64,000 nt of DNA, taken from a virus. Positions 3,889 through 64,000 of this stretch are shown one piece after another. Where the stretch lies: positions 1-64,000 of IMG/VR virus record IMGVR_UViG_3300031754_000001, one strand, 5' to 3'. A program made the position numbers and the translations under genes. Positions within the stretch are counted from its first letter, which is position 1, and the number at the start of each line of letters is the position of its first letter. Under the pieces are notes generated by a model, which ran no database searches, had not been told where the DNA came from, and was given only the letters and a program-made list of their open reading frames with translations.

Positions 3889-5667
3889 ATGTCCGTCGCC
3901 CTGCGGGTCGTGCCGGATGTCATCCTGCCCGACGGCCAGGTGCTGCGCGGGCTGGCCGGGCAGCAGCAGCCGAGATTCTGGACCGCCCCGCCGCGGCACC
4001 GGGACAAGGACCCGGCCTGCGCGGCGTGCCGGAACCCGGATTACGCGGGCGGCTGCGGCGACTACCAGTCCGCGGACCTGCTCAGCTGGGCGCCGGATTT
4101 CGGCTACGACCTGGATGAATGGCAGCAGTGGTGGCTGGCCGAGGCCTGCGGGACCCGGCCGGACGGCACGTGGGCGGCTTTCGAGAACTACCTGGTCGTC
4201 AGCCGGCAGAACGGCAAGAACCAGTGCCTGGAGGTCCGCGAGCTGGGCGGCCTGTTCGTCTTCGGCGAGACGATGATCATCCACACCGCGCACGAGTTCA
4301 AGGCCGCGGCCGAGCATTTCCGCCGGGTCCGGGACACCATCACCGCCTACGACGAGTTGCGCAAGCGGGTCAAGTCGATCACCACCTCCCACGGCGACGA
4401 GGCGATCGAGCTGCGGCCGGTGCCCACCCTGATCTTCGGCCCGGCCGGCCGGATGGTCCGCCGGACGATTACGCCCCGGCTCCGGTTCCTGGCCCGCAGC
4501 CGGGGTTCCGGCCGGTCTTTCACCGCGGATTGCGTCGTCTACGACGAGGCGATGATCCTGAGCGACGAGCAGGTCGGCGCCTCGATGCCGACGATGAGCG
4601 CCGTCCGCAACCCCCAGATGATCTACACCGCGTCCGCGGGATACAAGGATTCCGTCCAGCTCGGCGCGGTGCGCCGCCGGGTGCTCCGCGGGGACCCGAC
4701 CCTGATGGGCGCCGAGTGGTCAATCAGCCCGCACGCCGACACCTGCCCGCGTGACGAGATCCGCGGCCGGAGCACCAACCGGTACATCACTTGCACCCTG
4801 CATGACGACCGGGACGACCCGCGGTCCTGGGCCAAGGCCAACCCGGCGCTGGGCGATCGGATCACCGTCCGGCACGTCGCCCAGGAGATGGCCTCGATGA
4901 GCACCGACACCTTCGACCGGGAGCGGCTGGGCGTCGGCGACTGGCCGTCCGAGGACGAGTCCTGGTCGGTGATCAGCAAAGAGCACTGGGAAGCCTGCGC
5001 GATGCCCGATCCCGGCGGAGCCTGCCGGCCCATCGCGTTCGCCGTGGACGTGGACCCGGACATGCTCAGCGCGTCGATCGCCGCGGCCTGGTACCGGCCT
5101 AAGCCCGGGTTGCAGCAGGCCGCCGAGGACGCCGAGATGATGACCGCGATGAAGTGGTCGGCTACCACCGGGATGCCATTGTTCTCGCCGCAGCGGAAAA
5201 TCCGGGACGAGAAACCGGTGATCGAGATCCCGAGAGGCTGCCACCGGGAGGGCGTCAGCTGGGTCATCCCGCGGCTGGCCGAACTCAGGACGGCGTGGCG
5301 GCCCATCGCGGTCGCCATCCCGAAGAACGGGCCGGCTGCCGGGCTGATCGATGACGCGGAGAAGGCCGGGATCGAGGTGCTGAAGATGTCATCCGCCGAC
5401 GAGGCCGCCGCGTTCAGCTTCATCGTCACCGCCGCCCGGTCCCGTAATCTCATCCATCTCGGCCAGGAGAATGCCCCGGGCATGTGGCACGCCGTGGCCA
5501 GGGCCGAGACCCGGGACATCGGCGACGGCGGCCACGCCTGGTCGCGCCGCGACAGCGAGTCGGACATCACTCCGGTCACCTCAGGCACGGCCGCGCTGTG
5601 GGCGCTGAACAAGAAGCGCCGGAATTACGATCCGATGCGCAGTATAGGATTAGAACAGGTAATCTAG
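3889..5667 (+). CDS. terL: terminase large subunit
   Basis: Walker A VSRQNGK, Walker B VVYDEA, YTAS coupling motif, KANPALG, nuclease FAVDV and SDITP; in-frame TTA at 5650 just after YDPMRSIG. Confidence 0.95.
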   Translation: MSVALRVVPDVILPDGQVLRGLAGQQQPRFWTAPPRHRDKDPACAACRNPDYAGGCGDYQSADLLSWAPDFGYDLDEWQQWWLAEACGTRPDGTWAAFENYLVVSRQNGKNQCLEVRELGGLFVFGETMIIHTAHEFKAAAEHFRRVRDTITAYDELRKRVKSITTSHGDEAIELRPVPTLIFGPAGRMVRRTITPRLRFLARSRGSGRSFTADCVVYDEAMILSDEQVGASMPTMSAVRNPQMIYTASAGYKDSVQLGAVRRRVLRGDPTLMGAEWSISPHADTCPRDEIRGRSTNRYITCTLHDDRDDPRSWAKANPALGDRITVRHVAQEMASMSTDTFDRERLGVGDWPSEDESWSVISKEHWEACAMPDPGGACRPIAFAVDVDPDMLSASIAAAWYRPKPGLQQAAEDAEMMTAMKWSATTGMPLFSPQRKIRDEKPVIEIPRGCHREGVSWVIPRLAELRTAWRPIAVAIPKNGPAAGLIDDAEKAGIEVLKMSSADEAAAFSFIVTAARSRNLIHLGQENAPGMWHAVARAETRDIGDGGHAWSRRDSESDITPVTSGTAALWALNKKRRNYDPMRSIGLEQVI

Positions 5668-38342: not shown

Positions 38343-38347
38343 ATCAG

Positions 38348-38953: not shown

Positions 38954-38969
38954 GCTAACAGCCTATGCG

Positions 38970-39040: not shown

Positions 39041-39044
39041 GGAT

Positions 39045-39162: not shown

Positions 39163-39164
39163 CG

Positions 39165-39237: not shown

Positions 39238-39443
39238 ATAGTGCTGGTTCCCTGGCCGGGCCGTCTAGCAACAACCGGCCCGGCCAGGGGTCAGCACATC
39301 GCAGGAGACCAAAGGAACTCCTGCTCGATGGCGGGATTGGCCGTCCCGCCGAAATGCTCACGCTATGGAGATGTCAAGATGGCCAGCCGGAGCTGACCGC
39401 GGTGACATGCACTATCCGCGGCTCTCGCCTTGGACGGTGGTCG

Positions 39444-39515
39444 CAGGGGCGGAAGGACTCGAACCCTCGTAGGCAGGTTTGGAATCTGCTGTCCTGGCCG
39501 CTAAACGACGCCCCT
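39444..39515 (-). tRNA. tRNA-Trp(CCA)
   Basis: Loop TTCCAAA. Confidence 0.9.
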
Positions 39516-47044: not shown

Positions 47045-47674
47045 ATGTCCGGGTACAAGCCAGTCGGTACCGAGCTGCTGTACTCCTATGCCACCCCGGC
47101 GACGATCAGCGTGGTGTCCGCGTCGGCGGTAACGATCACCGCCGGGTGGCCCGCCATCGAGATCCCGGCGCATTTCTTCTCCAACGTGGGTGACTGGTCG
47201 TCCTCGCTGCGGTTCAGGATGGGCGGGTTCATCACCACCACCGCGACGGTTCCCACATTCCAGTGGGGCCTGGCCGCCGCGATCAAGGCCAGCCCCCCGG
47301 CGTTCTCGGCGGCGACGCCGCTCGGCCAGACGGCCGCGGTCATCCCCAGCGCGACCGGCGTGACCGCCGCGTCCTGGTTCCTGGACCTGGATATCACCCT
47401 GAAGACGCTGACCGGGGTAGCGACATCGGTCCTGGTCACCATGGGCAAGGTCGACATGCCGGGGATTGTCGCGGCACCGTTCCTGGGCGCGACAGTTCCC
47501 GCCGCCGCCGGGGCAAACACGATGTCCACCTACGACGTGAACCAGCCGTACCACCTGTGGCCGTTCCTGACCCTGGGCGCCGCGACGGCAGGCAATCAGG
47601 TCACTGCCCAGTACGCGAAATTGTATGGCGAGAATTTACCGGAGCGAGAACTAGCAGGAAATGGCGGTAACTGA
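47045..47674 (+). CDS. structural protein; in-frame TTA at 47636 near C-terminus
   Basis: ..KLYGEN then TTA..AAC-TGA. Confidence 0.75.
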   Translation: MSGYKPVGTELLYSYATPATISVVSASAVTITAGWPAIEIPAHFFSNVGDWSSSLRFRMGGFITTTATVPTFQWGLAAAIKASPPAFSAATPLGQTAAVIPSATGVTAASWFLDLDITLKTLTGVATSVLVTMGKVDMPGIVAAPFLGATVPAAAGANTMSTYDVNQPYHLWPFLTLGAATAGNQVTAQYAKLYGENLPERELAGNGGN

Positions 47675-48866
47675 TGGCCGGCACGACGAACATCCCGCTG
47701 ACCACCCTGGCTCCCGGCACGTACAGTTTCGGGCCGGCGGCCCTGGCCGACACCGACTCCCAGGCCGTGCTCACGGTTGACCGTACCCCGGCGGGCGGGC
47801 TGAATTCCGCGCCCGTCACCACGACAGTGCAGATCATCGTGCAACAGAGCGACGACGGCGGCGCGACCTGGGTGCAGCGAGTCGCGTACACCCTGTCCGG
47901 CGGGTCCTACGCCAAAGGAGCCAACCCGCCGGTCACCACATCCGGGTGCGTCTGCAACTTCCAGCCCGCAACGGGCCGCGAGGTCCGGGCGCAAGTCGTC
48001 GTCGCGGGGGCCTCCATCGCGGTAGCGGGCAGCCTAGTCATCTCCTGATCTGCCGTATGTCTTCGTAACTCGCGCCAGGAGGTGACCGGGACGTGACGAC
48101 GCTGACGGTTACCGCCACCCAGGGCACAAGCAGCGCAACCGGAATGCTCATGCGCATCCGGGTACTCACCGGGGCTGCCGCCGCCGCCGCCCAGACCGGA
48201 GGCTCAGTTGCGGCCGGCGGCGGGGCCACGTCATCCGTTAACATCACGACGACCGTTGCCGGATCTCTCGTTTACGGCGCTCTCGGAAACCAGGGTTCCT
48301 GTGCCACCGGGGAACCGTCCACCACCATCGTTGATAATTTCGATGACACGGTAGCCGGGCAGTGGTACGGCTCGTACCGCACCACCGCCGTCACCGGGAC
48401 GCCCGGGGTGACGCTTGTCGGGTCGACCGTCAGCAACGGCTTCGGGTCGATCGCGGCGCAGGAAATCCTGGCCAGCGGGACCATCGCCGAAGACGCCTCC
48501 GCGCCTGCTGTCGTCAGCAGTAACTCCCTGACCGCGCTGACCTCGGCTAGTTTCACCCCGCCGCCTGGCAGCCTGATCGCCGTCATGATCCAGTGCGACG
48601 GGACGGCCAGCGGATTCGAGACCTGCACGGTCACCGATACGGGCGGCGGCCTAACCTGGGCGCAGAAGGCCAACACCAGCGCGATCAGCGGCTGCCTGTA
48701 TGCCGGCGTGTGGATCGCGGACGTGCCGGCTAGCGCAGCAGCTTCCGCGCAGTCCGCGCTCGTTCAGCGCGGGCGCCTGCGCCGGAACCGCGGGCGCGGG
48801 CGCCGCCAGCAGCTGCAGGTCAATCCCGGTCGGCCGGGCTTCGAGGGCTGGGGGCACCCGCTGTGA
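47674..48866 (+). CDS. two probable structural proteins (47674-48048, 48093-48866)
   Basis: Thr/Ser/Gly-rich beta-type ORFs; TGATG coupling and SD GGAGGTG. Confidence 0.7.
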
Positions 48867-50799: not shown

Positions 50800-51747
50800 G
50801 TGACGGCGACCGTCTTCTACGACAACGTGAACGAAGTGGCCCTGATCGCCAACACGTTCACCAACGCCGCAGGAGTCCCGGCTGACCCGACCACGGTATC
50901 CTGCGTCATCACCGACCCGGCGGCCACCGTGGTCACGCACTCCTACGCCGGGACGCTGCCCGCCGATATCGTGAAGGTGAGCACCGGCAAGTACACGCTG
51001 GCCGTGCCGTGCTCGCCGGCCATCGCCGGGGTTGACGGGCTGTGGGGTGCCGGGTGGATCGGCACCGGGGCGGTTTCCGATGTCCAGCCGGTCACCTGGC
51101 GGGTCCTGCCGTTCAGCACGTCCCAGCTGTGGTACATCGGCCTGGAGGAATTCAAGGACCGTCTCGGCATCACCGACAATACCGACGATTACGCCTGCCA
51201 GACCGCGATCGCTGCGGCAAGCAACTGGGTCAATGAATATACGGGACGGCATTTCAACCGGGTCACCGAGACGCGCACTTTCGTCCCGTATGACATTTAC
51301 CGGCTGAACGTCGACGACATCGTGCCCGGCACGGCGATCACGCTCAACGTCGATTTCGACGGCGACGGGACTTACGAGCAGGCCTGGGTCAAGGATGTCG
51401 ATTACCAGCTGTTCCTGGGCAGGAACACGTTCAATACCGGCTCGTCCGGGGTGCAGCGGCCGTATGAGAAAGTCCGGGTGATCACCTCCGGGCGTACCTT
51501 CCCGTTCTTGTGGCCGTTCGCCCCGCTTAACCGGGTGCAGATCGCGACGACGTGGGGCTGGCCCGCGATCCCGCCGGCTGTCCCCGAGGCTACCCGGATC
51601 CTGGCCGCGGACGAGTTCAAGATGAAAGACGCGCCTTTCGGCGTCGCAGGTGTCTCCGACTACGGCATCGTGAGAATCCAGAGCAACCCGTGGCTGGTGG
51701 AGAACCTGCGCCCTTACGTGCGAGGTCGTCGTAAGGTCGGAGTATGA
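50800..51747 (+). CDS. head-tail adaptor with N-terminal extra domain
   Basis: YIGLEEFKDRLG..AAASNWVNEYTGRHF..TWGWPAIPPAV..A..LA..KDAPFGVAG..L.PY. Confidence 0.85.
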   Translation: MTATVFYDNVNEVALIANTFTNAAGVPADPTTVSCVITDPAATVVTHSYAGTLPADIVKVSTGKYTLAVPCSPAIAGVDGLWGAGWIGTGAVSDVQPVTWRVLPFSTSQLWYIGLEEFKDRLGITDNTDDYACQTAIAAASNWVNEYTGRHFNRVTETRTFVPYDIYRLNVDDIVPGTAITLNVDFDGDGTYEQAWVKDVDYQLFLGRNTFNTGSSGVQRPYEKVRVITSGRTFPFLWPFAPLNRVQIATTWGWPAIPPAVPEATRILAADEFKMKDAPFGVAGVSDYGIVRIQSNPWLVENLRPYVRGRRKVGV

Positions 51748-51975
51748 GGCATATCCGGAAGCATTCACGGACACGGCGCATACTGATCGATTCTCACGAC
51801 TTGCGTTTCGGCTTGTTCTATGTAAAGAAACATAGTGCATGGATCCATCTGCCCGGAGTGGTCATTCGCCTGAAAGGAGACGGCTGATGTTCATCCTGAC
51901 CACCGTGAATTGCAGCGCGCTGGTGCCCGTGATCATTCCGAGAGCAGGCGCGGGCAGCCGGGGCGGGCGCGGGCG

Positions 51976-52224
51976 GTGAAGATCATGATCCTGGCCGGAT
52001 GGCGGCGGCTGATCATCCAGGCGGGCGGCTGGTCCCTGATCGATCTCGATATCCTCAGCCCGCTGCGCAGCCCGGCAGCGGTCCGGTCTGTTCCCGACGT
52101 GCCCGGCACGGACCCGCGCAGTACCACGGGCGCCCAGGTTGAGCAGGCCGGCGAGCCCGCGCCCGGGTTCGGGTTCCGCGGCAGTATCGCCACCGTCGTG
52201 GCCCGTGACAACAGGAAAGACTGA
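51976..52224 (+). CDS. hypothetical protein
   Basis: 82 aa ending with a GFGF motif. Confidence 0.45.
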   Translation: MKIMILAGWRRLIIQAGGWSLIDLDILSPLRSPAAVRSVPDVPGTDPRSTTGAQVEQAGEPAPGFGFRGSIATVVARDNRKD

Positions 52225-52225
52225 C

Positions 52226-52858
52226 ATGGCGGTCAAGATCGGCGTGGTAGGCGACCTGTCGTTCGGGGACCCGGGGCGGCTGGCCGCGGTGCTCGACGCC
52301 GCGCTGATCGCCTGCGATTACGTGGTTCAGGTAGGCGATCTGCATCCGGCCTATCCCCAGGTGACCTCCCGGTACGCGACTAGCGGGCATAAGCTGTTCC
52401 CGGTCCCGGGCAATCACGACGTGGATTACAACTCGATCGGCTGCCCGCGCACCTGGCGGCTGGACCTGCAGGCACCCTCAGTGACCCTGCTTGGCCTGGA
52501 TAACGCGGCCGGGTCGCTGAGCCCGGATTCCAAGGTCCTGTTCAACGCGGCCAAGACCGCCCGGTTCGAGTTCGTTTTCGCGCACATGCCGCCGTGTGAG
52601 CTGGTTCTCCCGGATGGAAGCACTAACGGGCATAACATGGCCGAAGCCGGCGGCGGTGCCGACGCGGACTGGCTGACGAACATGCTGAAGACCCGGGCTG
52701 ACGCCATGTTCTGCGGGCATTACCACGGCTGGACCTATCAGCAGGCCCCGTTCGGGCCGATTATCGTGGACGGCCGGGGTGGCGCGGCGCCTGAGCTGGC
52801 CTATACCCTGCTCACCGTTACAGACGAAGGCTGGGTACTTCACTCAGTTGGGGTGTGA
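52226..52858 (+). CDS. calcineurin-like metallophosphoesterase
   Basis: VVGD, QVGDL, VPGNHD, FAHMP, FCGHYH. Confidence 0.9.
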   Translation: MAVKIGVVGDLSFGDPGRLAAVLDAALIACDYVVQVGDLHPAYPQVTSRYATSGHKLFPVPGNHDVDYNSIGCPRTWRLDLQAPSVTLLGLDNAAGSLSPDSKVLFNAAKTARFEFVFAHMPPCELVLPDGSTNGHNMAEAGGGADADWLTNMLKTRADAMFCGHYHGWTYQQAPFGPIIVDGRGGAAPELAYTLLTVTDEGWVLHSVGV

Positions 52859-52859
52859 C

Positions 52860-53606
52860 ATGGCCGCCCAGCCGCGCAAGGCTAAGCGCTCCCCAGCTCA
52901 GGTCAAGGCGAGCCAGGCGTTCGCGCGGGCCGGGCGCGCGGCCCAGGCTAAGGTCCGGCAGGCGGCAATCGCCAAGACCGGCAAGCCGCCGCCCCGCAGC
53001 AGGAAGCAGCAGGCAGCGTCCCGGAACTTCGCCGCGGCCGGGCGCGCGGCCCAGGCAGCCCGGCGGGCAGGCAAGCAGCCAGTCAAGCCGAAAGCCGTGG
53101 CAGCCCCGTGCCCGGATATGCTCGGTTCAGCCGGGAGCCTCAATAAGCCGGCCCCCCAGTTGCGCCCAACCGGGCTCCCGGCACCGCTGAACTCCCAATT
53201 CCAGTTGGAGCCAGGGCCGTTCATTCCAAGTGAACCGGCCTTCTCGTTGCACCGCCTGCCCGCCTGCGGCCCGGTCGCGCTGGCTGAGCACCTGGCCGTC
53301 TTCACCGGGATCCTCGTCCCGGACGAGGCCATCCTGGCGCTGCATGACCGGGCTGGGGTGATCAGCCTGGACGGCCTGCTCGAACGCGTCGCGGCGGAAG
53401 GACTGGCCGGGCCGGAGACGAGACTGGCCCACTTCGAACGGTGCGATCCGGATACGGCCGTGCCCGGCCTGATCTACGGGATCCAGCTGCGCGTCGGCTA
53501 CCATGCGGTACTGCTGCGGCCGGACGGCATGCTGAGCTGGGGTCAGGTAATGCCCCGGCACGGCGTCCCGGCAGAGGCCTGGTGGCTGGAGTGGGAGGCG
53601 GAGTGA
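52860..53606 (+). CDS. basic-repeat protein with C-terminal papain/C39-like motifs
   Basis: Two ASxxFAxAGRAAQA repeats; ACGPVALA..GYHAVLL..LSWG. Confidence 0.6.
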   Translation: MAAQPRKAKRSPAQVKASQAFARAGRAAQAKVRQAAIAKTGKPPPRSRKQQAASRNFAAAGRAAQAARRAGKQPVKPKAVAAPCPDMLGSAGSLNKPAPQLRPTGLPAPLNSQFQLEPGPFIPSEPAFSLHRLPACGPVALAEHLAVFTGILVPDEAILALHDRAGVISLDGLLERVAAEGLAGPETRLAHFERCDPDTAVPGLIYGIQLRVGYHAVLLRPDGMLSWGQVMPRHGVPAEAWWLEWEAE

Positions 53607-53724
53607 GCCCGGCCCGGCGTCGCAAGCGGAAACGACTGCCGTGGATGGTCCGGGCGATGGCAGCTATCCTCACGACCCGGAAGAGGAAGCGGAAACGGGA
53701 ACCGGGCGACGTCGCGGAGGCTGA

Positions 53725-54009
53725 ATGAACGAGCAGCCGGAGAGCGGGGAGAACCCGGAACTGCCGGGCCTGGAAGAACTCCTGCGCGCATCCCAGGGCA
53801 TCACCCCGGACATGACCGGCGCGATCAGCGCGATGGCCTCGGTTCACGCCCAGTGGCGCCAGGCGTGGGCGGACACCGGCAAGTTCACTGACGAGGAAAC
53901 GTTCGAGCTGGTCCGCCTCTTGGTAGCCTCGTCTGCCGGGGGAATCCGCTCGCTCGGGTTATCCTGGCTGCCGGAGGGACGTACTAGTCACCGCCGCCCG
54001 GGAAGCTAG
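53725..54009 (+). CDS. hypothetical protein; in-frame TTA at 53959
   Basis: ..GKFTDEETFELVR..IRSLG then TTA. Confidence 0.65.
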   Translation: MNEQPESGENPELPGLEELLRASQGITPDMTGAISAMASVHAQWRQAWADTGKFTDEETFELVRLLVASSAGGIRSLGLSWLPEGRTSHRRPGS

Positions 54010-54146
54010 CCGGAAAATCGCGACCCCGGGCAGGAGCGTGAGTAGCCGGCTCGGCGCGCTCTCCCTCCGGATATCTGGCACACTGGTAAACGCAGCGGGC
54101 CGGAGGAACCGGACCCAGGGCAGGCATCACCGGAGCCCCTGCCCTC

Positions 54147-54884
54147 GTGCCTGACCTCACCCCGGACACCGCGGCCGAGCAGCACCGCCTGCTTGCCCAG
54201 GCTGACGCGATGGACGGCCTGCCGCAGGCTCCCGCGGGTACCCGCCAGGACCGCGGCGACCGGGCCGGCGAGGCTCGCGCCCTGCTTCAGGATCTCGCCG
54301 TGAAACGAGACGAGATCCGGCGGCTGCGCCGGGAAGCCTTCCGCTCCCATTCGCTGGGCCGCTGGGTCACCCTGGTAATGCGCGATCAGGCCGGCGGGGT
54401 CTTCTCCGGCCACCAGCTGTGGGCGCGGAACCCGCATGTCCGGTCCGGCAGCCAGCTCACGTTCGGTGAGCGGTCCGCCGACATCATGCGGAATGCGTTC
54501 GGGTCCTGGGCGTTCGTCGGCGGGTTCCTGGCGTTCATGGCCTCCTGGATGATCCTGAACTCCGTCCTGCTGGCTCACGGCGGGTTCGACAAGTACCCCT
54601 GGATCCTGCTGAACCTGGGCCTGTCGATGATGGCCGGGCTGCAGGGCGCGCTGATCCTGATCGCCGCCAAGCGGGCCGACCGGGTGCAGGCAGAGCAGGC
54701 CCTGGCGCACTACGCCGAAACCTCCAAGCTGGATGCGCTGCAGACCCAGAACAACGAGATGACCGCACGGATCGAGACGGCTACTAGCCTGCTCGCCGAA
54801 ATCCACCGGCATGTCAGCGCGCTGTCCCCGGAAGCCGGCACGTTCAGCCCGGATGAGGTCCCGCCGGAGAACGGCTATGGCTGA
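54147..54884 (+). CDS. DUF1003-like membrane protein
   Basis: TFGERSAD..FGSWAF..FDKYPWILLNLGLS. Confidence 0.85.
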   Translation: MPDLTPDTAAEQHRLLAQADAMDGLPQAPAGTRQDRGDRAGEARALLQDLAVKRDEIRRLRREAFRSHSLGRWVTLVMRDQAGGVFSGHQLWARNPHVRSGSQLTFGERSADIMRNAFGSWAFVGGFLAFMASWMILNSVLLAHGGFDKYPWILLNLGLSMMAGLQGALILIAAKRADRVQAEQALAHYAETSKLDALQTQNNEMTARIETATSLLAEIHRHVSALSPEAGTFSPDEVPPENGYG

Positions 54885-55582
54885 TGAAAGCCCCCCGGTC
54901 ATGCTGGACTGGTCGCTGTGGTGCGGTCGGCATCTGGAGCCGTACCGGGCACGGTGGCCGGAAGGCGCGATGGTCGCGATGATGCGGCTGTTCGACGCGG
55001 CCGTGAAGATGCCCGCCGTGGCCGAGGCAGCCGGGCATAAGACGGAGAACCTGACCGGGGCGCTGCAGCGATTCGCGCCGCTGTGCTGCTTCATCAGCCG
55101 GGACGAGCTGGAAGCGATCTACGCCGAGACAGTGCTGCTGCCCCCGGGAGCCGGCCATGGCTAACCTGATCGCCATCCGGAACGCGATCGCCGCGAATAT
55201 CACGAAGTACACCGGGCTGCGCGCGGACGGCCAGGCCCGTGATTCCGTTACGCCGCCCTGCGCAGTAGTGCTGCCCGGCAGCCCGTACATCACCTATGCC
55301 GTCACCATGGACGGCGCGCTGAATTTCAATTTCATCGTCCTGCTGATCATCTCCGATGCCGCCCCGGTGGAGAAAACCCAGCGAGCCCTGGACGCGCTGC
55401 TCGGCGCGGGCAAGAGCACAGACGTGACCGGATCGGTCCCGATGGCGATCGAGCAGGATAACACCCTCGGCGGGACGGTGGATTTCATCCAGTCGGTCAC
55501 GGCTACGAATTACGGCCGCATCGATTACGCCGGCCAGACGTATTTCGGGGCCAGGGTTAACTGCGTCGTAGGAGGAATGTGA
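54877..55582 (+). CDS. hypothetical protein (54877-55164) and tail terminator-like protein (55157-55582)
   Basis: IRNAIA..TPPCAVV..AIEQDNTLGG.V pattern in the second ORF. Confidence 0.7.
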
Positions 55583-57585
55583 TGGTCACCACCGCCTGGC
55601 ACGTCGAGCGCGTGCGGATCGAGGAGTACCCGGTCCCGGGCAAGCCGCTCGGCCGCCATGTCTACCACGATTCCCGGAACAGGGCCTACCCGTGGCCCCG
55701 GCAGGCCGGCCGGGAACTGACCTCCCAGCTGTGGACCCGGCACACGCCGATCCTCGATCAGGGATCTATCGGGTCATGCTATCCTCCGGGTGTGAGGATA
55801 CGAATGGCTGATGGCAGTGAACGGCCCATTGAAGACGTGCGGCTCGGTGAGCACGTAGCTACGGCCGAAGGGAATACTGGCCGCGTCATGCAGACAATGA
55901 TCCGAGACGAGGATGGCGGTCTTATCCGCCTGATCTTGTGGGGGCACAGTCACCTGCGCATGACCCGCGAGCACCCGGTCCTGACCAAGCGCGGTTACAT
56001 CCCGGTCAGCAAACTTCGCGTCGGTGATCAGGTAGCCCTCACTCGGTACTTGCCAGAGCAGTACACAACTCATGTCGTCACAGCCGGGCACATTGCTCAG
56101 CCAAGTCACCGGGTTGTCCGGGGTACCCGCTGGCAGGGGCTTCCCGGACGCCGCGGGCTAACTGCAGGCAGTCACATCATCCCGGAAAAGATCGAGCTAA
56201 CTCCGGCATTCGGGCGGCTTATCGGGCTATTTCTGGCAGAGGGCAACATCGATGAAGCCAAGGTGGTCTTCTCCCTGCACCTGAATGAGAAACCCACGCT
56301 AGGTGACGAGATTGCCTCAATCATGTCGGCCTACGGTGTCCAGGCTTCCCGGCGGGACCTGCCAGAGCACCACGGTCACAAGGTCAGCGTGCACGGCACC
56401 GGATGGGCACGGCTCCTGTCATCGCTATGCGGGAACGGTGCGGGACTCAAACGCCTGCACCCTGACCTGACTTCTGGCCCGCCGGAATTTCTGGAGGCAG
56501 TCTTGTCCGGTTGGCGAGATGGGGATGGCCACCGTAAGAAGGATGCCGCTGAGCATACCGGGATCACGATCAGCCACGATCTTGCCCTGGCCATGTACGA
56601 CATTGCCCAGGCTCTCGGCTACCGGCCAGTCATCCGCCATACCCCGCCAGTCGTTAACGGGTTTGCTCGGACCCGGCAGTGGCGCTGGGAAGTAGCTACA
56701 TCGGGCTTGAACGCCCGGAATTACAGCACCCAGGATGATCAGCATGTCTGGCGGAAGGTTCGCGAGATCCGGCTGGAGGATTACATCGGACCGGTTTATG
56801 ACCTGACCGTGGAAGGCGATCACTCCTATGTTGCCGAAGGTGTCGGCGTACACAACTGCACCGGTAACGAGGAAGCAGGCGCGCTCGGCACCGACCCGCT
56901 GTTCGCCGCCCTGCGCAGCGGCTACCCGGTGCTGGACGAAGCGCTGGCGGTCAGGATCTACTCGATGGCCGAGACCATCGACGGGGATGGCCCGTACCCG
57001 CCGAACGACAACGGATCGTCCGGGCCGTCCGCTGCCCAGGCCGCGAAGAACCTCGGCCTGATCGCCGGGTACCTGCACTGCTTCAGCCTGGCTGACGTGC
57101 TCGACGCGCTGGAGGCCGGCCCGGTCGGCATCGGCGCCAACTGGTATGACTCGATGGATTCACCGGACAGCTCGGGCCTGGTGGTCATCAGCGCGGGCGC
57201 TCAGGTCCGCGGCGGCCACGAGTTCCTGTGCCGGGGCAAGGACACCGACGCCCGGCTCCTGCACTTCGACAACAGCTGGGGCACGTCATTCGGCGTCAAC
57301 GGCAGCTTCTCCATGGGCTACGCCACCCTGGAGCGGCTGCTGGCCGAGCAAGGCGACGCCACCGTCTCGCTGCCGCTGACTGCACCCGCTCCGGTACCCG
57401 TCCCTGTTCCCGTGCCAGTACCGCCGGCTCCTGTCCCCACGCCGCCGAACCCCGGCCCGGACACAGATCCCGCCGACGATGCCCTGGCCAGGACCGTCTC
57501 CAACTGGGCGCAGGGGCATCACACGGGATCGAACGAGCGCGCCGCCAGGGCCATCCAGGCGTGGCTCACGGCGAAGGGGCTTTAG
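55579..57585 (+). CDS. papain-like (C1) cysteine peptidase with intein, possibly lysis- or virion-related
   Basis: LDQGSIGS|CTGN, GGHEF, DNSWG..FG.NG.F. Confidence 0.88.
   Translation: MMVTTAWHVERVRIEEYPVPGKPLGRHVYHDSRNRAYPWPRQAGRELTSQLWTRHTPILDQGSIGSCYPPGVRIRMADGSERPIEDVRLGEHVATAEGNTGRVMQTMIRDEDGGLIRLILWGHSHLRMTREHPVLTKRGYIPVSKLRVGDQVALTRYLPEQYTTHVVTAGHIAQPSHRVVRGTRWQGLPGRRGLTAGSHIIPEKIELTPAFGRLIGLFLAEGNIDEAKVVFSLHLNEKPTLGDEIASIMSAYGVQASRRDLPEHHGHKVSVHGTGWARLLSSLCGNGAGLKRLHPDLTSGPPEFLEAVLSGWRDGDGHRKKDAAEHTGITISHDLALAMYDIAQALGYRPVIRHTPPVVNGFARTRQWRWEVATSGLNARNYSTQDDQHVWRKVREIRLEDYIGPVYDLTVEGDHSYVAEGVGVHNCTGNEEAGALGTDPLFAALRSGYPVLDEALAVRIYSMAETIDGDGPYPPNDNGSSGPSAAQAAKNLGLIAGYLHCFSLADVLDALEAGPVGIGANWYDSMDSPDSSGLVVISAGAQVRGGHEFLCRGKDTDARLLHFDNSWGTSFGVNGSFSMGYATLERLLAEQGDATVSLPLTAPAPVPVPVPVPVPPAPVPTPPNPGPDTDPADDALARTVSNWAQGHHTGSNERAARAIQAWLTAKGL
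55777..56856 (+). mobile_element. intein with LAGLIDADG endonuclease (360 aa)
   Basis: Starts CYPPGVRIRMADG; TREHPV; IGLFLAEG and LSGWRDGDG; VYDLTV; ends VHN; +1 Cys. Confidence 0.94.
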
Positions 57586-57831
57586 GTGGAGCCCCCGCTG
57601 ATCCCGCCGGAGGAGTTCGTCGCCCAGGTTAACGCGCGCAACCCGGGCCTGCCGTACCGGACCGCGCTGGATCCGCTGATGATGCTGCTCTGGCACACCG
57701 TCTCGGCCCCGCCGGAGCGCGACCAGCTGACGATCATCACGGGCTATTGATGAGCGGCTGGCCCGGGTCCCGCTGCTGTGGACCGCGGCCGGGCTGATGC
57801 TTGGTAACGAGGCTGTTCAGGACAAGTACGA

Positions 57832-58368
57832 CTACGAAGGCGCAACAGCCTGAATTACCCAGGTTTCGCCCCGGACGAGCATTCCGATCGTCGTCTTTCC
57901 CATGCAGAACTCCCGTGCCAGGCTGGCCTGAGACTCCCCGGCAGCATTCCGTGCCCGGATCTGCTCAACAAGTTTCCAGGTCAGCTTGGCACGGCCGTTC
58001 TGCTCGCCGGCGGGTTCCGTGCCGTCCCGCCAGCGGTCCTCCTGGTTGCGTTTTGGCGTCCCGTAGTAGAGATTGTCCGGGCTGCAGTCGGTCTGCCCTG
58101 CTGGACCATGGCAGACCTGGTGTCCTGGCGGGCGTTTCCCGATCCAGGTCTGGGCAACCAGGGTGCCGACATAACAGTTGGTACTCTCTCCGTTGACACT
58201 GAGGAGAACCATCAGGCGCTCATATTCGCCGCTTGGATAGGCTTTGCGGATACCCCCGCGCGTACCGGGCCGGGGAAGGCTGCGGATACGTCCGTGACTA
58301 GAGGCGTCGTAGAAACCTTCAAGGCCAGGAATCGCCCGCCACTGCTCGGGCTCGCTAAGATAGCTCAC
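57832..58368 (-). CDS. NUMOD4-HNH homing endonuclease
   Basis: EQWRAIPG..YDASSHGRIRS; VCH..D..DNLYYGTPKRN; AKLT..HTH. Confidence 0.88.
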   Translation of the reverse strand: MSYLSEPEQWRAIPGLEGFYDASSHGRIRSLPRPGTRGGIRKAYPSGEYERLMVLLSVNGESTNCYVGTLVAQTWIGKRPPGHQVCHGPAGQTDCSPDNLYYGTPKRNQEDRWRDGTEPAGEQNGRAKLTWKLVEQIRARNAAGESQASLAREFCMGKTTIGMLVRGETWVIQAVAPS

Positions 58369-58503
58369 AGCGCAGGTCCAATCTGCGTCAGGTGGCCCGG
58401 TCGCTGCCCTGGACGGCACGGCCGGGCTGATACCTGGATGTTACCCGCGGCTGCGGCCTTCTGGAGCCAGCCTCTCTCGTTTCACGGAGGGAGGTGATGC
58501 TAA

Positions 58504-59578
58504 GTGCGTGTTCTGATTTGTCACCCAGGACCCGATTTTTCCGTAGCAGATGTTTATGCGGGCTGGACCGAAGGCCTGAAAGAAATGGGTTGTGAAGTGG
58601 CCGGATACAATCTTTTACCCAACGACAGGCTCATTTTCTACTCGCTGGCCCTGATCGACAGCGGGGAAGAGGATGAAACCGGGCACCCGATCGTGCGCCA
58701 GGCGATGACTCAGGAGCAGGCTTTTGCTGCTGCTATGCAGGGATTGAGTCATGCCTGTTATACTTTCTGGCCCGATGCCATCTTGTTTATCAGCGGGTTC
58801 TTTCTCAATGCCGCTACTTACGAGCTACTGCGCAGCCGTAAGCACAAGCTAGTCATCCTGAATACAGAATCGCCTTATTTACCAGGACAACGAGCAGCTG
58901 ACCCGCGGGCAGCTCGCGCACCTGAACCTGCTGAATGACCCCACGAACCTGGAATCGTTCAGGAAAGTGACCCCGGCTGAGTACATGCCGCACGCCTACC
59001 GGCCTTCCGTGCATTATCCCCGGCGGGGACCGCGCAACCCGGAACTGGTCAGCGACCTGTGCTTCATCGGCACCGCATTCCGGAGCCGGGTGGAGTTTTT
59101 CGAGAAGATGGACCTGGCCGGGCTTGACGTGCTGATCGGCGGAGCCGACTGGGGCTCGGTCGACCCGGGCAGCCCGCTGGCGCCGTTCATCGGGTCCGGG
59201 GTCGGCAACCCCGATTGCGTCGACAACACCGAGGCGGCCAGGCTGTACCGGCACGCGAAAGCCGGCCTCAACTTCTACCGGCGGGAAACCGCCGAGGCCG
59301 AGAACTGGGACGGCACCGCCTGGGCGATGGGGCCGCGGGAGATCGAGCTGGCCGCCACGGAGCTATTCTTCCTCCGGGATCCCCGGCCCGAGGGCGACGA
59401 GGTGCTGTCTATGCTGCCCACGTTCACCGGTCCGGAAGACGCGAGCGGGAAGCTGCGCTGGTGGCTAGCGCACGACCGCGAACGGGAGAAACGAGCTGCC
59501 CAGGCCCGCGCTGCGATCGCGGACCGGACGTTCACCGCGAACGCCCGCCGCCTGCTCCAGCTGCTTGACAGGATCTGA
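58504..59578 (+). CDS. CgeB-like glycosyltransferase split by a 4-nt gap at 58879-58882
   Basis: ..NTESPY (frame 1) joins QDNEQ..YMPHAY..DLCFIGT..LNFYR..GPREIELAA (frame 2) at TAT-T-TAC; second TTA at 58615. Confidence 0.85.
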
Positions 59579-59581
59579 GGG

Positions 59582-59839
59582 TTATCTCTCCGGGGGCAGC
59601 CCGAGCATGGCGTTCAGGCCCTCATCCGCTATCGTGCCGCTGATATCGATACTGAGCGGCGGGATGCTGCTCAGCAGCCTGATCGCCCCGGCTGCCCTCC
59701 GGATATGTTCCGTGAATTCCCGGGTGTCCTGCACGACGACGCAGCTCGCGTCCGCGGCGGCCTGGTACAGGTTTCCCCAGACATCCTGCGGCGGGGAAGG
59801 CCGGGCGATCGGGTCCAGGACGATCCGCAGCCTGATCAT
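59582..59839 (-). CDS. hypothetical protein
   Basis: 85 aa; SD GGAGGTG. Confidence 0.55.
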   Translation of the reverse strand: MIRLRIVLDPIARPSPPQDVWGNLYQAAADASCVVVQDTREFTEHIRRAAGAIRLLSSIPPLSIDISGTIADEGLNAMLGLPPER

Positions 59840-59843
59840 GTGA

Positions 59844-60143
59844 TCACCTCCAGGCCAGGTTACCCAGGCTGTCGTCGGTCTTGCCGCCGGGGCCGTGTCT
59901 CGCTCTCCGGCCGCTGCCCGGCCCGCGGAACGCCCGCAGGACGAGGCTCCCTACCGTCACTGTCGTGATCCGGCCGTACTTCGAAAGCGTTACCACCCGA
60001 TAGCCTTTGCTGTTCAGCTGCGGCGCGAGCAGGCCGCCGGCCGTGGCCGCCCTCGGCAGCGAGTACACCTGACCGCAGCAGCTCACCTCGTAGAAGCCGG
60101 CGTACCGGGGTACCGGCAGCCACTGCTCCCTGCCTGCGCACAT
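59844..60143 (-). CDS. short NUMOD4-HNH-like protein
   Basis: EQWLPVP..FYEVS..GQVYS..VLRAF..RH..D.SLGNL; lacks the last HNH residues. Confidence 0.7.
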   Translation of the reverse strand: MCAGREQWLPVPRYAGFYEVSCCGQVYSLPRAATAGGLLAPQLNSKGYRVVTLSKYGRITTVTVGSLVLRAFRGPGSGRRARHGPGGKTDDSLGNLAWR

Positions 60144-60346
60144 GAGGCCCGTACCGTGCTGCATCGTAATGAGCGTTGCCGCTCCAGCACGGGCCGGGCC
60201 TCGACTTTCCCAGGATACAGGATTGGGATCCGGGAGTTCATGAACTAGGCAACTTAAACTGATGCCGACGTTGCCGAGGCCCGTAGCTGCCCACCAGGCG
60301 TACGGATGTGGAGCCGGCTCCCTACTGTTCCTTAGAGGGAGCACAG

Positions 60347-60793
60347 TTGTCCCGCATTCACGGACGTAACGGAGTGGCGTACGTTTCTGTAGACGGCATT
60401 GGTGGCGCAAACCCTGTTGCGAGCCCCATGGCGTTCCTGAGTGACTGGAGCATCAACTTCACCGTCGCGAAAGTTGATGTTACCGCCATGCTCGACTCGA
60501 ACCTCATTTACGTTGCGGGACTCCCGGACGCATCGGGAGACTTCACGGGGTTCTACGACACCGCGACTGCTCAGACGTACGTCGCGGCTACAGACGGCCT
60601 TCCGCGAAACTTCTATCTCTACCCGTCCAACCTGGCCGCTCAGATGTCACCAGTGCCCCAATATTTCTTTGGTACTGTCCTGCCCGATTATTCACTCGCA
60701 GGTGGTGTCGCCGCAGCCGTATCACTCAAGAGCACTTGGAACGCGGCCAGCCGGATCCAGCGGTACCCGGTTTACGGCCTGCCGGGCACCTGA
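60347..60793 (+). CDS. major tail (tube) protein
   Basis: SRIHGRNG..WSIN..DVT..YVAGLPDASG.F.GFYD; TTG start; SD GAGGGAG. Confidence 0.85.
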   Translation: MSRIHGRNGVAYVSVDGIGGANPVASPMAFLSDWSINFTVAKVDVTAMLDSNLIYVAGLPDASGDFTGFYDTATAQTYVAATDGLPRNFYLYPSNLAAQMSPVPQYFFGTVLPDYSLAGGVAAAVSLKSTWNAASRIQRYPVYGLPGT

Positions 60794-60897
60794 CAAGTCC
60801 CGGGGCGCGGAACGTGGGAAGCCGCGCCCCGGTTCCCCGTTTCTGGCATGGCCCGCTGCGCACGGGAGCTGCCCCCGTCTCGTGAGAGGAGGCAGCC

Positions 60898-61682
60898 ATG
60901 CCCGAGGAAGCAGGGCTGGACATCGATTTCGACGCCGAGCTGGCCAGGATCCAGGGCACGGGCGCCGGGGTACCGCAGCCGCCGCCCGCCGCCGAGGTGG
61001 AGGTCACCGAGGGCACGATCGTCACCTCGGACCGCACCGTGGAATTCATGGGCGAGCGGTTCCGTATCAGCGACAGGATCGGCCTGATGCCGATGCTCAA
61101 GTTCTCCGCGCACGCGGACATGAGCACGTCCGACCCGGGTGCCCTGGCCGCCATGTACTCGATGCTGAAGGACTGCATCTATCCCGGCCAGCCCGGCTGC
61201 GGGAACTGCAAGGCCTGCAAGGCGGACGACGAGCGCGCGTGCAAGGACTCCGACCCGGGCGACTGGCGCAGGTTCGAGCAGCACGCCATCGACGCCAAGG
61301 CTGACGCCGACGACCTGCTGGACGTCATCACCAGGGCGATCGAGCTGATCTCGGGCCGCCCTACCGAGCCGCCCTCACCCTCCTCGGCTGGTCGGCGCAG
61401 CACGCGGGACGCCTCGATGGCACGCTCCTCCGCTCGTCGGGCCAGGGGATCGAGGCGCTGACCGTCCGGCAGTGCTGCAACGTCGCCTACTCGATCCTGA
61501 CCGAGGGCCGCAGCGACCAGGAGCTGGAGGAGCTGGACTTCGAGATCGGCATGGCCGAGAGCCCGGAGGCCGAGGCGATGCGGGCGCTGCGCGAGCACCA
61601 GGAGGCGATGGGCATGAAGTTCGCGGACCCGGATGCCCCGGTCATGGCACCGCTGGGCAGCCAGGACGAGGAGTTCCGGTAG
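60898..61682 (+). CDS. tail assembly chaperones G (60898-61461) and G-T (about 61359-61682, -1 frame)
   Basis: The GRPT motif (CGC CCT AC) opens a -1 frame PYRAALTLLGW..EEFR*; position between major tail and tape measure genes. Confidence 0.75.
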
Positions 61683-61876
61683 TGGATGACTTCGGCCGCC
61701 ATCTCGGGTGCCTGCTGTACGGGCTCCTGGGCCTGGCCGCGGGCGGCATCCTCGTCGCGGTCGTGCTCGCGTGCCTGATCCTGGCGGGCGTGCTGTTATG
61801 GCCGGCGATATCGCGTGGGACGATGCCGCGCTGTATGACCTGCTGCACTCCCCGGTCGGGCCGGTCGGGGAGCTGA
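61682..61876 (+). CDS. small membrane protein; in-frame TTA at 61796 overlaps the next ATG
   Basis: VDDFGRHLGCLLY..AGVL then TTA; TTATG. Confidence 0.55.
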   Translation: MDDFGRHLGCLLYGLLGLAAGGILVAVVLACLILAGVLLWPAISRGTMPRCMTCCTPRSGRSGS

Positions 61877-62250
61877 TCGCCGAGCTGAGCGAGCGCGGCG
61901 CGGCCGTGGCCCGCGCGGTGGTCCCGATCCGCCGCAGCCGGGCCGGGCATAACAGCACCGCTAAGCCGCCCGGGTTCACCAAGGCCGGCATCCGCGTGCA
62001 CGGCCCGGTTACCGGCAGCCGCGGCGGCCTGTACGGGGGCGTGAATGCGCCTTTCGACCCGGGCGCCTTCCTGGAATACCCGGCTGAGCAGATGTCGAGA
62101 ACCTACCCGTTCCTCACGACCGGCATGAATTCGCTGGAGTTGTTATGGCCGGCCGCAAACTCGGCGACGTGTTCTTCGTGGTCAGCCCGGAGACTAAGTA
62201 CTTCCGGGCGGAAACCGACGCCGGGATCAAGCGCGCTATCGCCGGGATGA
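61798..62250 (+). CDS. neck/tail-completion (HK97 gp10-like) protein; TTA at 62143 overlaps the tape measure ATG
   Basis: LLHSPVGPV..ARAVVP..FLEYPA..YPFLTTG. Confidence 0.7.
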   Translation: MAGDIAWDDAALYDLLHSPVGPVGELIAELSERGAAVARAVVPIRRSRAGHNSTAKPPGFTKAGIRVHGPVTGSRGGLYGGVNAPFDPGAFLEYPAEQMSRTYPFLTTGMNSLELLWPAANSATCSSWSARRLSTSGRKPTPGSSALSPG

Positions 62251-64000
62251 AAGTGACCGTACCGGTCGGCGCGGACGCCAGGAGCGCGATCGCCACGATT
62301 GACGGCCTGCAGGCCAAGATGAAGGCCGTCGCCGCCAGGCTGTCCGACCTGCGGATCGGCGCCGACGATAAGGCAGCCGAAGCCGTGATCGTCCGGCTGC
62401 AGGCCAAGCTGGCCGCGCTGGCCAAGGCTGTCTCTGCTATCACGATGACCGCGGACACCACCAAGCTGGACGCCTCTATCGCCAGGGAGAAGGCAAAGCT
62501 GGAAGCGCTGCGCCTGGCTGCCAGTGACCTGAAGATGGACGCCGACAGCACGGCCGCCGTCGCGAAGATCGCCGCCCTGGAAGCACAGGCGTTCCACCTC
62601 GGCAAGAGCCTGGATAAGCTGACCGCCGATGTCGATATCGACCGTGCGCTTACCAAGATCTACGCGATCGAGGCCGAGCTGAAAGTGCTCCGGTCCCGTG
62701 CTGAAGTCATCCGGCTGGACGCGGACTCCAAGGCCATCACCGCCGCGATCACCGCGACCGAGGCCTCGATCGCGGACCTGTCCCACAAAGCAGCGGACAT
62801 CAAGCTGGGCGCCAGCATCGACACCGGCAAGCTGCTGACCGCCGAAGCCGGGCTGCTCGGCATCGAGGCGGCCGTAGAGAAACTAACCCCTGTCGCGGTC
62901 AAGGGCGATGCCGCGCTCGGCGCGCTCGGCGCCGCCCTCACCGGAACCGGTACCGGCTGGGGATTCCTGACCCGGAACATCGCGCTGTTCGGCGGCATAT
63001 TCAACCGGGTACTGCCGATGGTCGCCACGTCCGTCGCGGTCTGGCACGTGCTGGCCGACGCGGTTATCGAAGTCGCCGCGGTCTGGATCCCGGCGGGCCT
63101 GGCCGTGGGCGCCTTCGCCATCGCGGCCTCTGACGCGGCGACGGAAATCCAGCGGCGGATGACCGCCGTGCACACCGTGATGGACGCTACCGGCCAGTCC
63201 GTCCCGCCGCTGACCCGGGCCATGGAGAACCTGCATAACGCGGTACGGCCCCAGGTCTACCAGCTTTTCGGTGACGCCCTGACCGTCATGAACTCCCGGA
63301 CGGGGACATTCGCGCAGGTAGCCAAGCAGACCGGCACGGTGATCGACCAGCTCGCCGCCCGGATGGTGTACGCCGTCACGGCCGGCAACAAGCTGGGCAC
63401 CAGCACTACCCAGCTCAGCGGTTTCTGGAAGACCGCCATCACCGACGCGTCCAAGCTGGGCGATTCCATCGGCAACCTGTTCGGGATCTTCGGCAATCTT
63501 TTCCGGGCCATTCCCGGGTTCGCCGCCGGGCTGCTCACCATCGGGGACGACTTCACCAAGATCCTGGAGACAGCTTCGGCCGCCGCCATCCCGGTACTCA
63601 AGTGGGTGCTGCTGCTGCACGGCTACATCCTCTACACCGGGCTCGCGGTCACCGGGACGCTGGCGTTCATCGGCGCCGTCGCCAACCTGGCCAAGCAATT
63701 CGTCACCTTCGCCGCCGGGTCCGTGCTGGCCGGAGTAGGCGCGCTGAAGGCCTTCGGGTCGACCCTGGTCAGCATCGGGCTGGCCCTGGCCGGCTACGTG
63801 GAATCGATCATCGTCGCGGACGGGGCCTCGGCCAGTTTCGCCGCGGCGCTGGCCCCGCTGGCCGCCAACCCGATGATCTGGGTGGCGGCTGCCGCCGTGG
63901 CCCTGGGCGGCCTGGTGTACTGGCTGGTCACGAGCAAGGACGCCGCGCAGCAGTTCAACGCCTCCATGCAGCAGACGATCCAGAACGCGCCGCTGTCCAA
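62145..64000 (+). CDS. tape measure protein (5' part; runs off the window)
   Basis: ATG 62145 with SD GGAG; open Ala/Leu-rich helical frame to the window end; absent from the ORF track because it has no stop. Confidence 0.85.
   Translation, partial: MAGRKLGDVFFVVSPETKYFRAETDAGIKRAIAGMKVTVPVGADARSAIATIDGLQAKMKAVAARLSDLRIGADDKAAEAVIVRLQAKLAALAKAVSAITMTADTTKLDASIAREKAKLEALRLAASDLKMDADSTAAVAKIAALEAQAFHLGKSLDKLTADVDIDRALTKIYAIEAELKVLRSRAEVIRLDADSKAITAAITATEASIADLSHKAADIKLGASIDTGKLLTAEAGLLGIEAAVEKLTPVAVKGDAALGALGAALTGTGTGWGFLTRNIALFGGIFNRVLPMVATSVAVWHVLADAVIEVAAVWIPAGLAVGAFAIAASDAATEIQRRMTAVHTVMDATGQSVPPLTRAMENLHNAVRPQVYQLFGDALTVMNSRTGTFAQVAKQTGTVIDQLAARMVYAVTAGNKLGTSTTQLSGFWKTAITDASKLGDSIGNLFGIFGNLFRAIPGFAAGLLTIGDDFTKILETASAAAIPVLKWVLLLHGYILYTGLAVTGTLAFIGAVANLAKQFVTFAAGSVLAGVGALKAFGSTLVSIGLALAGYVESIIVADGASASFAAALAPLAANPMIWVAAAAVALGGLVYWLVTSKDAAQQFNASMQQTIQNAPLS

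Follow-up and report, generated by a model that had tools for sequence, protein, structure and literature searches.

The 64,000-nucleotide stretch analysed here (the window) is the first 64 kb of IMGVR_UViG_3300031754_000001, a linear virus record of 139,583 bases from an uncultured soil phage. At two consecutive gene junctions of its tail module, named J1 and J2, an in-frame TTA codon occupies the place of the upstream stop codon, and the last base of this TTA is the first base of the next gene's ATG. From sequence comparison, UUA is likely to be where the upstream gene ends functionally, and translation is likely to be handed over to the next gene at the AUG that overlaps it. Ribosomes probably treat TTA as a stop-like signal at both junctions. 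The fuller account has in our judgement an even chance of being right: infected cells can hardly decode UUA, synthesis of the upstream protein ends at this codon, and translation passes to the overlapping AUG.

The record of the window (G000) has a completeness estimate of 66% by CheckV, and its G+C content is about 67% (63-72% along the window). It was compared with the complete relative G001 (210,383 bp, with terminal repeats) and with four fragments, G002-G005. The records of G000 and G002 are incomplete. These six related records comprise 466,461 bases and, together with short loci of further relatives, form the sample of this study.

Junction geometry

The 13-mer TGTTATGGCCGGC is present at 61794-61806 and 62141-62153, and these are its only two copies both in the window and in the whole record. 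In each copy the TTA of the upstream frame overlaps the ATG of the next gene, which at J2 is the start of the tape-measure-like gene, just as a preliminary description of this DNA had reported. The overlapping triplet is TTA and not a stop, so neither junction is a canonical stop-start overlap. When one mismatch is allowed, TGTTATGGCCGGC has three matches against 0.12 expected, a number reached in 0 of 100 shuffles; the third match, at 61942-61954, is an inverted near-copy. No enrichment is seen for the hexamer TTATGG, with 5 matches where 9.4 are expected.

The TTA of J1 is in frame with an open reading frame (ORF) that is G+C-rich at third codon positions and starts at GTG 61682. The next in-frame stop is TGA at 61874-61876, 25 codons further on. 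The TTA of J2 is codon 116 of the gene starting at 61798, which has its next in-frame stop 34 codons on (TGA, 62248-62250). Under NCBI translation table 11 the genes thus overlap by 79 nucleotides (nt) at J1 and by 106 nt at J2. Both ATG 61798 and ATG 62145 are true starts, since the N-termini of relatives align to them with the patterns ..I.W... (115-amino-acid (aa) protein) and MAGR.LGD (tape measure). The tape measure begins MAGRKLGD in the window and is kept in relatives as M-A-G-R-x-L-G-D. Codon log-odds per codon are +0.46 (J1) and +0.38 (J2) before the TTA, and +0.44 and +0.48, respectively, in the frame of the ATG.

A third junction had been proposed at 19926-19933. The letters AAA TTA TG are present there, but the gene junction is unsupported. 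Coding scores are about 0 on both sides, and the tail in the TTA frame is only 5 codons long. The methyltransferase-like gene that follows is similar to its homologues only from about residue 44 of the long ORF, and the ATG at 20021, led by GGGAGG, fits better as its start.

Comparison with relatives

Viral and metagenome contigs supplied the relatives of the 115-aa protein, and we compared the J2 position in the rows of 20 relatives, some of which are near-identical. A canonical stop is found within 0-4 codons of the aligned TTA in 19 of these 20 rows. There is a canonical stop and no TTA in 17 rows, where the junction reads TAG-ATG, TGATG, TAGTG, TAA-ATG, TGA and others. Two rows have TTA as the last sense codon, followed directly by TGA (G001) or TAA (L045). 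The remaining row (L049) reads ATC TTA TGG and is again stop-less; its ATG begins a mini-ORF of 12 codons, which in turn overlaps the start of the tape measure through a TAATG. A comparison of this kind had been suggested in the preliminary description, which asked for TGATG or TAATG in relatives. The stops found are of these and similar types, and a long tail like the 25- or 34-codon tails of the window is kept by none of the relatives.

At the J1 position, relatives have no small ORF; the stop of the chaperone-like T frame overlaps the start codon of the 115-aa gene there, as GTGA or ATGA. The exception is G004/L013, which reads GAG CTG TTA TGG CGG at this chaperone-to-115-aa junction, where relatives have ...DEEFR TGA. 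This is the same stop-less TTA-ATG geometry, at a gene pair different from that of J1. Because the orthologous proteins end at J1 and J2 and nothing useful follows, we read UUA as a functional gene end. In a tree of 19 distinct 115-aa proteins, the four rows with a terminal TTA fall in four separate groups, one of them with a support of 100/99 and the others with modest support.

TTA aligns with the stops of relatives at gene ends away from J1 and J2 as well. The large terminase gene of the window ends ...S-I-G TTA GAA CAG GTA ATC TAG TAA TGA (5641-5682). A stop (TAG, TAA or TGA) comes directly after the aligned codon in 17 of the 23 relatives' rows printed, and the stop of the G001 terminase aligns to the TTA of the window. 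In a gene for a 94-aa protein, TTA TCC TGG CT is common to G000 (53959) and G001 (54809, minus strand), and in G002 and G004 the last Leu is CTG followed by TGA or TAG. The 94-aa protein is about 50% identical between G000 and G001, and the tails are unrelated beyond three residues. Likewise, the small ORF before the gene at 10676 in G002 reads ...RGGRGR TTA TGG, and its G004 counterpart has ...RGGRGR and then a stop.

TTA usage and junction scan

TTA is by far the rarest codon, accounting for 10 codons among the 39,068 called in G000 and for 10 among 57,055 in G001; the next rarest, TGT, is used 28 and 64 times. Seven of the 10 TTA codons of G000 are in the last 41 codons of their ORF (baseline 20%, other rare codons 16-40%), and two of the remaining three precede a better-fitting start that is led by a Shine-Dalgarno (SD) sequence. 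The TTA distribution in G001 shows the same pattern. Filtered alignments of G000 and G001 proteins replaced a tblastn search without composition correction, which was too noisy and of which only single rows were used. In these alignments TTA makes up 2 of 16,288 and 3 of 17,539 aligned codons, and other rare codons are present 9-64 times. The aligned TTAs are always 0-6 residues from a block edge, and none is inside a conserved block. TTA is limited to gene ends and frame breaks.

We scanned the six records for NN[A/G]TG sites that are preceded by a coding frame and followed by coding in the +2 frame. The scan found seven stop-less TTA-ATG junctions with tails of 16-75 codons (Table 1). Codons other than TTA gave 62 sites, which consist of 52 ATGA/GTGA overlaps, 6 sites with tails of 1-4 codons and 4 with tails of at least 10 codons; one of these four is the shadow of the TTA site at G004 6317. 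Canonical one-base overlaps under the same criteria were 6 TGATG and 1 TAGTG. No sense codon other than TTA is found repeatedly in place of the stop at NNATG junctions of the clade. For an origin by a single change from TGATG or TAATG, TTA is one of five possible outcomes, yet it is the outcome in 7 of 7 such ATG cases.

The seven long-tailed sites and the stops of the orthologues together support one part of the preliminary description: UUA sits in the slot of the stop codon, and the functional protein finishes at it. The release and reinitiation proposed there may follow from a stall at UUA. The alternative proposed with it, a hop of the ribosome from a YUG codon to the AUG, is not supported. 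The codons before TTA at the seven sites are CUG, UUG, AGG, ACG, CGG, AUC and CUG, leaving no common take-off codon to re-pair with AUG.

G000 encodes 34 tRNAs (32787-39515, minus strand), among them tRNA-Leu with the anticodons CAG, GAG and CAA. A tRNA-Leu(UAA) is absent both from these 34 and from the 39 tRNAs of the complete G001. Both phages encode tRNAs with U34 for other rare codons that end in A, and U34 tRNAs for AGA, AAA, CAA, GGA, AUA and further codons are among their genes.

Proposed mechanism

We propose that the upstream gene would be translated to its normal C-terminus and would then meet UUA in place of UGA, UAA or UAG. With no tRNA-Leu(UAA) from the phage and a non-functional bldA tRNA in a growing Streptomyces-type host, UUA would be hardly decodable. 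The ribosome would stall once UUA entered its A site, and the upstream protein would no longer be made productively beyond this point. Release may take place via peptidyl-tRNA drop-off with the help of Pth, via ArfB-type rescue, or after slow near-cognate reading into the tail. Release factor (RF)/ArfB (PF00472), Pth (PF01195) and SpoU/TrmL (PF00588) genes were not found in G000, G001 or G002, so any release must use host factors. The next gene would be translated from the overlapping AUG, either by reinitiation or from its own G-rich SD-like stretch; such stretches precede most of the junction ATGs. If charged tRNA-Leu(UAA) were present, read-through would add junk tails of 25 and 34 residues, and ribosomes would cross the next start. 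The stop would thus be conditional, since read-through would take place only with the charged tRNA. Where a landing site or a +1 option yields a useful protein, translation would continue past UUA.

A broader form of this proposal concerns a clade of large high-GC soil actinophages. UUA would act as a tRNA-gated terminator there, ending a gene without a release-factor codon and allowing a restart at AUG, and it would be a stop where there is no landing site and a hop or shift where there is one. We judge this form somewhat less likely than not. If it is true, virion gene expression would be tied to the tRNA-Leu(UAA) state of the host.

Several points weigh against termination at UUA. A ribosome that stalls at UUA would lie over the very AUG to which it should hand over, and rescue by tmRNA would tag upstream proteins that the phage presumably needs. 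As no RF/ArfB, Pth or TrmL-like gene was found in the three phages searched, the release step would be left to the host. This host, and with it the tRNA-Leu(UAA) status, is only presumed; the nearest cultured relatives, actinobacterial phages (Gordonia, Mycobacterium), have a portal identity of only 29-35%. A nucleotide search of the window from 60800 to 64000 against cultured phages had no match. Stall, release, reinitiation, tRNA dependence and host identity are all steps that we infer. The upstream ORF is doubtful at one of the seven junctions, G001 118569. Genes were called and coding was scored with a home-made codon log-odds model trained on the long ORFs of G000. No stop-less TTATG junction was present in another 283,905 bases, taken from around terminase genes in 25 relatives, which makes the trait a sporadic one. 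We considered and rejected an RNA structure common to the junctions, as folding z-scores range from -2.4 to +1.4 across the seven sites. Finally, an in-frame TTA lies between conserved same-frame flanks at G000 58615 and at codon 27 of the G001 portal, where UUA must be read or hopped in frame.

Alternative explanations

The junctions might simply have lost their stops. TTA would then be leucine, the proteins would carry 25- and 34-residue tails over the full overlaps, and TTA would be there by chance or through a benefit of UU before AUG for initiation. Under table 11 the ORFs stay open as far as 61876 and 62250. High-GC genomes give long off-frame ORFs, and the tails of the junctions are at the 67th-93rd percentile of the same-frame expectation at other gene starts. 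The sporadic occurrence of TTA among relatives also fits, and the SD-like stretches before most ATGs make independent initiation possible. In addition, the CAUAA of an initiator-type anticodon loop, which is seen here, is complementary to UUAUG, and this complementarity may affect initiation. However, stop loss leaves unexplained why the rarest codon is present at all seven derivable long-tailed ATG junctions, where about 1 in 5 would be expected if the five neighbours were equally likely. TTA is also in the stop slot at gene ends that are not junctions, and the tails have no coding signal. The stop-less TTA of the 94-aa gene is common to G000 and G001, whereas the tails differ. We consider plain stop loss unlikely.

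A hard-wired change of the genetic code would make UUA a true fourth stop of the phages or their hosts, at which translation always terminates. Decoding with NCBI table 23 ends the genes at 61798 and 62145, giving 1-base overlaps at both junctions. TTA is absent from conserved interior positions, and it aligns with the stops of orthologues at J2, G004 10513, G002 10678, the terminase (5650) and the 94-aa gene. The difficulty is in two genes whose translation must go on beyond a TTA. The essential portal gene of G000, broken within 7483-7600, starts MGLIERIQASRTENRVIGGVPWR, and after TTA 7552 and one base the +1 frame continues RPWDSPFVKFSAGG. The N-terminus MGLIERIQ...GGVPWR is thus in one frame and RPWDSPFVKF in the +1 frame; the portal of G001 is unbroken and colinear with it. 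The glycosyltransferase gene of G000 (58504-59578), whose C-terminal half is matched by Pfam Glyco_trans_1_2, has a +1 frame change at TAT TTA C (58876-58882, TTA 58879), where G001 reads ESPYQDEE unbroken. The G001 gene in turn breaks at AAT TTA C, past which it must continue, and G000 has an in-frame CTT TTA CCC there (58615). Since the portal and the glycosyltransferase need translation past TTA, a simple code with TTA as a stop does not fit the clade; the in-frame TTAs of the G001 portal and G000 58615, between conserved flanks, also speak against it. No release-factor gene was found in G000, G001 or G002, and no bacterial release factor is known to read UUA. A fixed code change is improbable.

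Recoding at UUA would place a ribosome in another frame, by a +1 shift (UAU), by a -1 shift (GUU, then AUG) or by a hop, and would result in a short tail or a fusion. The +1 breaks at TTA-Y in the portal and the glycosyltransferase are candidate sites of such a shift in the same phages. A further one is in G004 (L033), where 4527-4550 reads GGA TTA GCC A GGA TTC and the +1 frame is coding after TTA 4539; a matched GGA..GGA pair flanks this 7-base TTA-headed gap in the style of phiHau3. At the junctions, a G precedes TTA at 6 of 7 sites, so that a -1 shift would read GUU-AUG in the downstream frame, and at J2 and G004 10513 the P-site codon is immediately preceded by GGAG. There is, however, no slippery heptamer and no matching landing codon: no UUG is found near the UUG of J2, and the next CUG after J1 is 36 nt on. 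The AUG is at the orthologous N-terminus in 7 of 7 sites, which points to initiation and not to fusion. The +1 tails are 13-74 codons long (13-17 at J1 and J2), at the 34th-76th percentile of expectation, without selection for a quick +1 stop. Frameshift-mediated termination was rejected as a general answer for this ordinary tail length. Recoding is quite improbable as the event at J1 and J2.

An error that turned TGATG or TAATG into TTATG in a metagenome assembly of about 10-12x read depth has a negligible probability, because the same geometry is in records from other samples (G001, G002, G004, L049) and the letters of 51566-63900 are the same, with 0 differences, in a Logan contig of run X1. 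X1 is the one public DNA run in which the stretch was found, kept as contigs, and no RNA data set is listed as containing it. The second assembly, possibly from the same reads, rules out an assembler artefact in this region; as X1 is perhaps the source sample, a read-level error could still be shared by both.

Comparison with known systems

The closest known case is the UUA-triggered translational bypassing proposed for the large terminase genes of Streptomyces phage phiHau3 and two prophages (Antonov et al. 2023, PMC10732093). Bypassing of this type without a functional tRNA-Leu(UAA) has partial experimental support (PMC10732093, PMC5009743), and the Streptomyces tRNA-Leu(UAA) is stated not to be functional in the vegetative phase (PMC10732093). 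As here, phiHau3 is a high-GC actinophage with a nearly unused UUA at a place where standard decoding gives a useless product. The logic of a cognate tRNA that is not functional in vegetative growth is also the same. The breaks at portal 7552 and glycosyltransferase 58879 match the TTA-headed coding gaps of phiHau3 type. J1 and J2 are unlike them: similarity stops at the TTA, no frame resumes, and a different protein starts at the overlapping AUG. They also have no matched take-off and landing codons within a few bases. As to the SD-like and stem-loop stimulators around the UUA that belong to the phiHau3 type, GGAG precedes J2 and G004 10513, and the folding scores given above show no shared structure.

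A second case is the upstream ORF of adpA in Streptomyces, which has UUA 5-6 nt before the main AUG. Occlusion of the start by a paused ribosome, and termination or drop-off at or near UUA, are discussed there as hypotheses (PMC10732093). UUA is at the 3' end of the upstream ORF and beside the start of the next one in both systems. The adpA ORF differs in having a UGA that overlaps the AUG (AUGA), and its UUA is followed by G, giving a +1 UAG. At J1 and J2 the overlap with the AUG is made by the UUA itself, which is followed by U, and the nearest stop is 25-34 codons away in frame and 13-17 codons away in the +1 frame.

The geometry is identical to that of TGATG/TAATG coupling, and the counts in the clade are similar (7 TTATG against 6 TGATG and 1 TAGTG). 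The difference is that the triplet at J1 and J2 is not a stop and no release factor is expected to act on it. In human mitochondria, 'hungry' AGA or AGG codons are at the ends of two genes. UUA is a stop in the mitochondria of Thraustochytrium (NCBI table 23). These cases have in common with J1 and J2 a sense codon without an efficient decoder at gene ends. They are organelles, however, and a simple reassignment does not suit the present phages, since TTA is also found in them at places that translation has to pass.

UUA-dependent recoding in actinophages has so far been documented for a few terminase genes, with partial experimental support only. In the literature searched, a scope that takes in parts of PMC10732093 but neither its supplements nor Smith et al. 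2013, we found no description of a UUA that replaces the stop of coupled phage genes. UUA-dependent recoding itself is known; UUA in the stop slot of coupled genes would, if true, be what is new here. Release at a sense codon would be categorically new, and J1 and J2 would be a natural case of such termination-like release in a bacterial system. If UUA takes the place of a stop, standard gene callers over-extend the upstream genes and report false overlaps of 80-110 nt and junk C-termini. The junctions would also provide compact cassettes (e.g. GAG-TTG-TTA-TGG-CC) for probing how a ribosome exits from a hungry codon and reinitiates. They would further suggest that phages sense the physiology of the host through a single tRNA.

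Features of the tail module and other TTA sites

Table 1. Positions of the TTA junctions and gene ends and of the surrounding features, in window coordinates unless another record is named.
Feature	Position	Strand	Remark
J1	61796..61798	+	In-frame TTA, one-base overlap with ATG 61798, no stop
J2	62143..62145	+	In-frame TTA overlapping tape-measure ATG 62145, no stop
Stop-less TTA-ATG sites of the scan	G000 61796, 62143; G001 126506, 118569; G002 10678; G004 6317, 10513		
Large terminase end	5650..5652	+	TTA after ...RSIG, where relatives stop
94-aa gene end	53959..53961	+	TTA at last residue of orthologues; common to G001
Canonical TGATGGCCGGC junction, same phage	47672..47682	+	Same 9-base start
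ORF with weak major-tail-protein PHROG matches	60308-60793		
Chaperone-like pair, upstream ORF (187 aa)	60898..61461	+	No Pfam/PHROG match
-1 frame extension, T-like part	61332..61682	+	Ends ...DEEFR TAG (61680-82)
Small hydrophobic ORF	61682..61798	+	GTG overlaps TAG of T frame; 38 codons, then TTA
Read-through tail of small ORF	61799..61876	+	25 codons + TGA; non-coding-like usage, mean -0.27
Conserved 115-aa gene	61798..62145	+	Between chaperone-like pair and tape measure; ends ...NSLEL + TTA
Inverted near-copy of TGTTATGGCCGGC (12/13)	61942..61954	-	Inside 115-aa gene; as RNA can pair with J1 or J2
Read-through tail of 115-aa gene	62146..62250	+	34 codons + TGA; non-coding-like usage, mean -0.33
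Tape-measure-like gene	62145..64000 in window, to 68048 of record	+	1967 aa; NlpC/P60 + SLT domains

The genes around J1 and J2 belong to the tail module (Table 1). The gene from 62145 to 68048 is tape-measure-like by its size, position and NlpC/P60 and SLT domains, and the pair at 60898..61682 is a putative tail assembly chaperone by its position. The last part of the upstream ORF of this pair is overlapped by a -1 frame ending at 61682, and the two-frame arrangement is kept in L001, L002, L004 and L005. A -1 shift, at 61380-61470, is needed to pass from the frame of 60898 into the frame ending at 61682. The small hydrophobic ORF is seen in G000 alone among the compared records. Its mean codon log-odds is +0.46 over 38 codons (+0.53 per codon over 30). 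Pfam and PHROGs searches gave no match for the small ORF, the 115-aa protein or the chaperone-like ORFs. A contig scan of reference genomes confirmed no relative of the 115-aa family, so it gave no prophage or host lead.

RNA folding pairs the inverted near-copy at 61942-61954 with J2 in the minimum free energy structure and with J1 in the centroid structure. Folded over 391 nt, the 115-aa gene does no better than shuffled sequences (z = 0.59), and the 6 other TTATG sites open to such a check had no counterpart of the pairing.

Mini-ORFs of 5-14 codons lie between the 115-aa gene and the tape measure in L002/L009, L011, L014-L016 and L049. The ATG of the mini-ORF overlaps the upstream stop (or TTA), and the stops of several mini-ORFs overlap or adjoin the tape-measure start in a relay-like manner.

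Among the tRNAs, the CAU tRNA of G000 (34812-34885) has an unusual anticodon loop, CCCAUAA, with C at position 33. Its G001 counterpart was called Tyr(AUA) by ARAGORN and is more simply a CAU tRNA with the same loop.

In the portal of G000, TTA 7552 is the loop of GGCGA-TTA-TCGCC. In the G001 portal (101545-104136, minus strand), an in-frame TTA lies three codons beyond that position and faces a gap of 2 residues in G000. This portal also contains an apparent intein-like insert (...TYSCVTEDTQILTTRGW...); the portal ORF of the window is similarly long, with 979 codons.

The letters TTATCCTGGCT..AGGCAGCG after the TTA at 53959 resemble a stretch 3' of the G004 stop of the 94-aa gene, and from this likeness 53959-54009 may be a conserved non-coding element. 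At 47630-47682 the window reads GAG AAT TTA CCGGAGC GAG AAC TAG, where duplicated Glu-Asn codons flank a TTA-headed stretch. A hop there would land beside the TAG, and straight reading ends the ORF in the TGATGGCCGGC junction.

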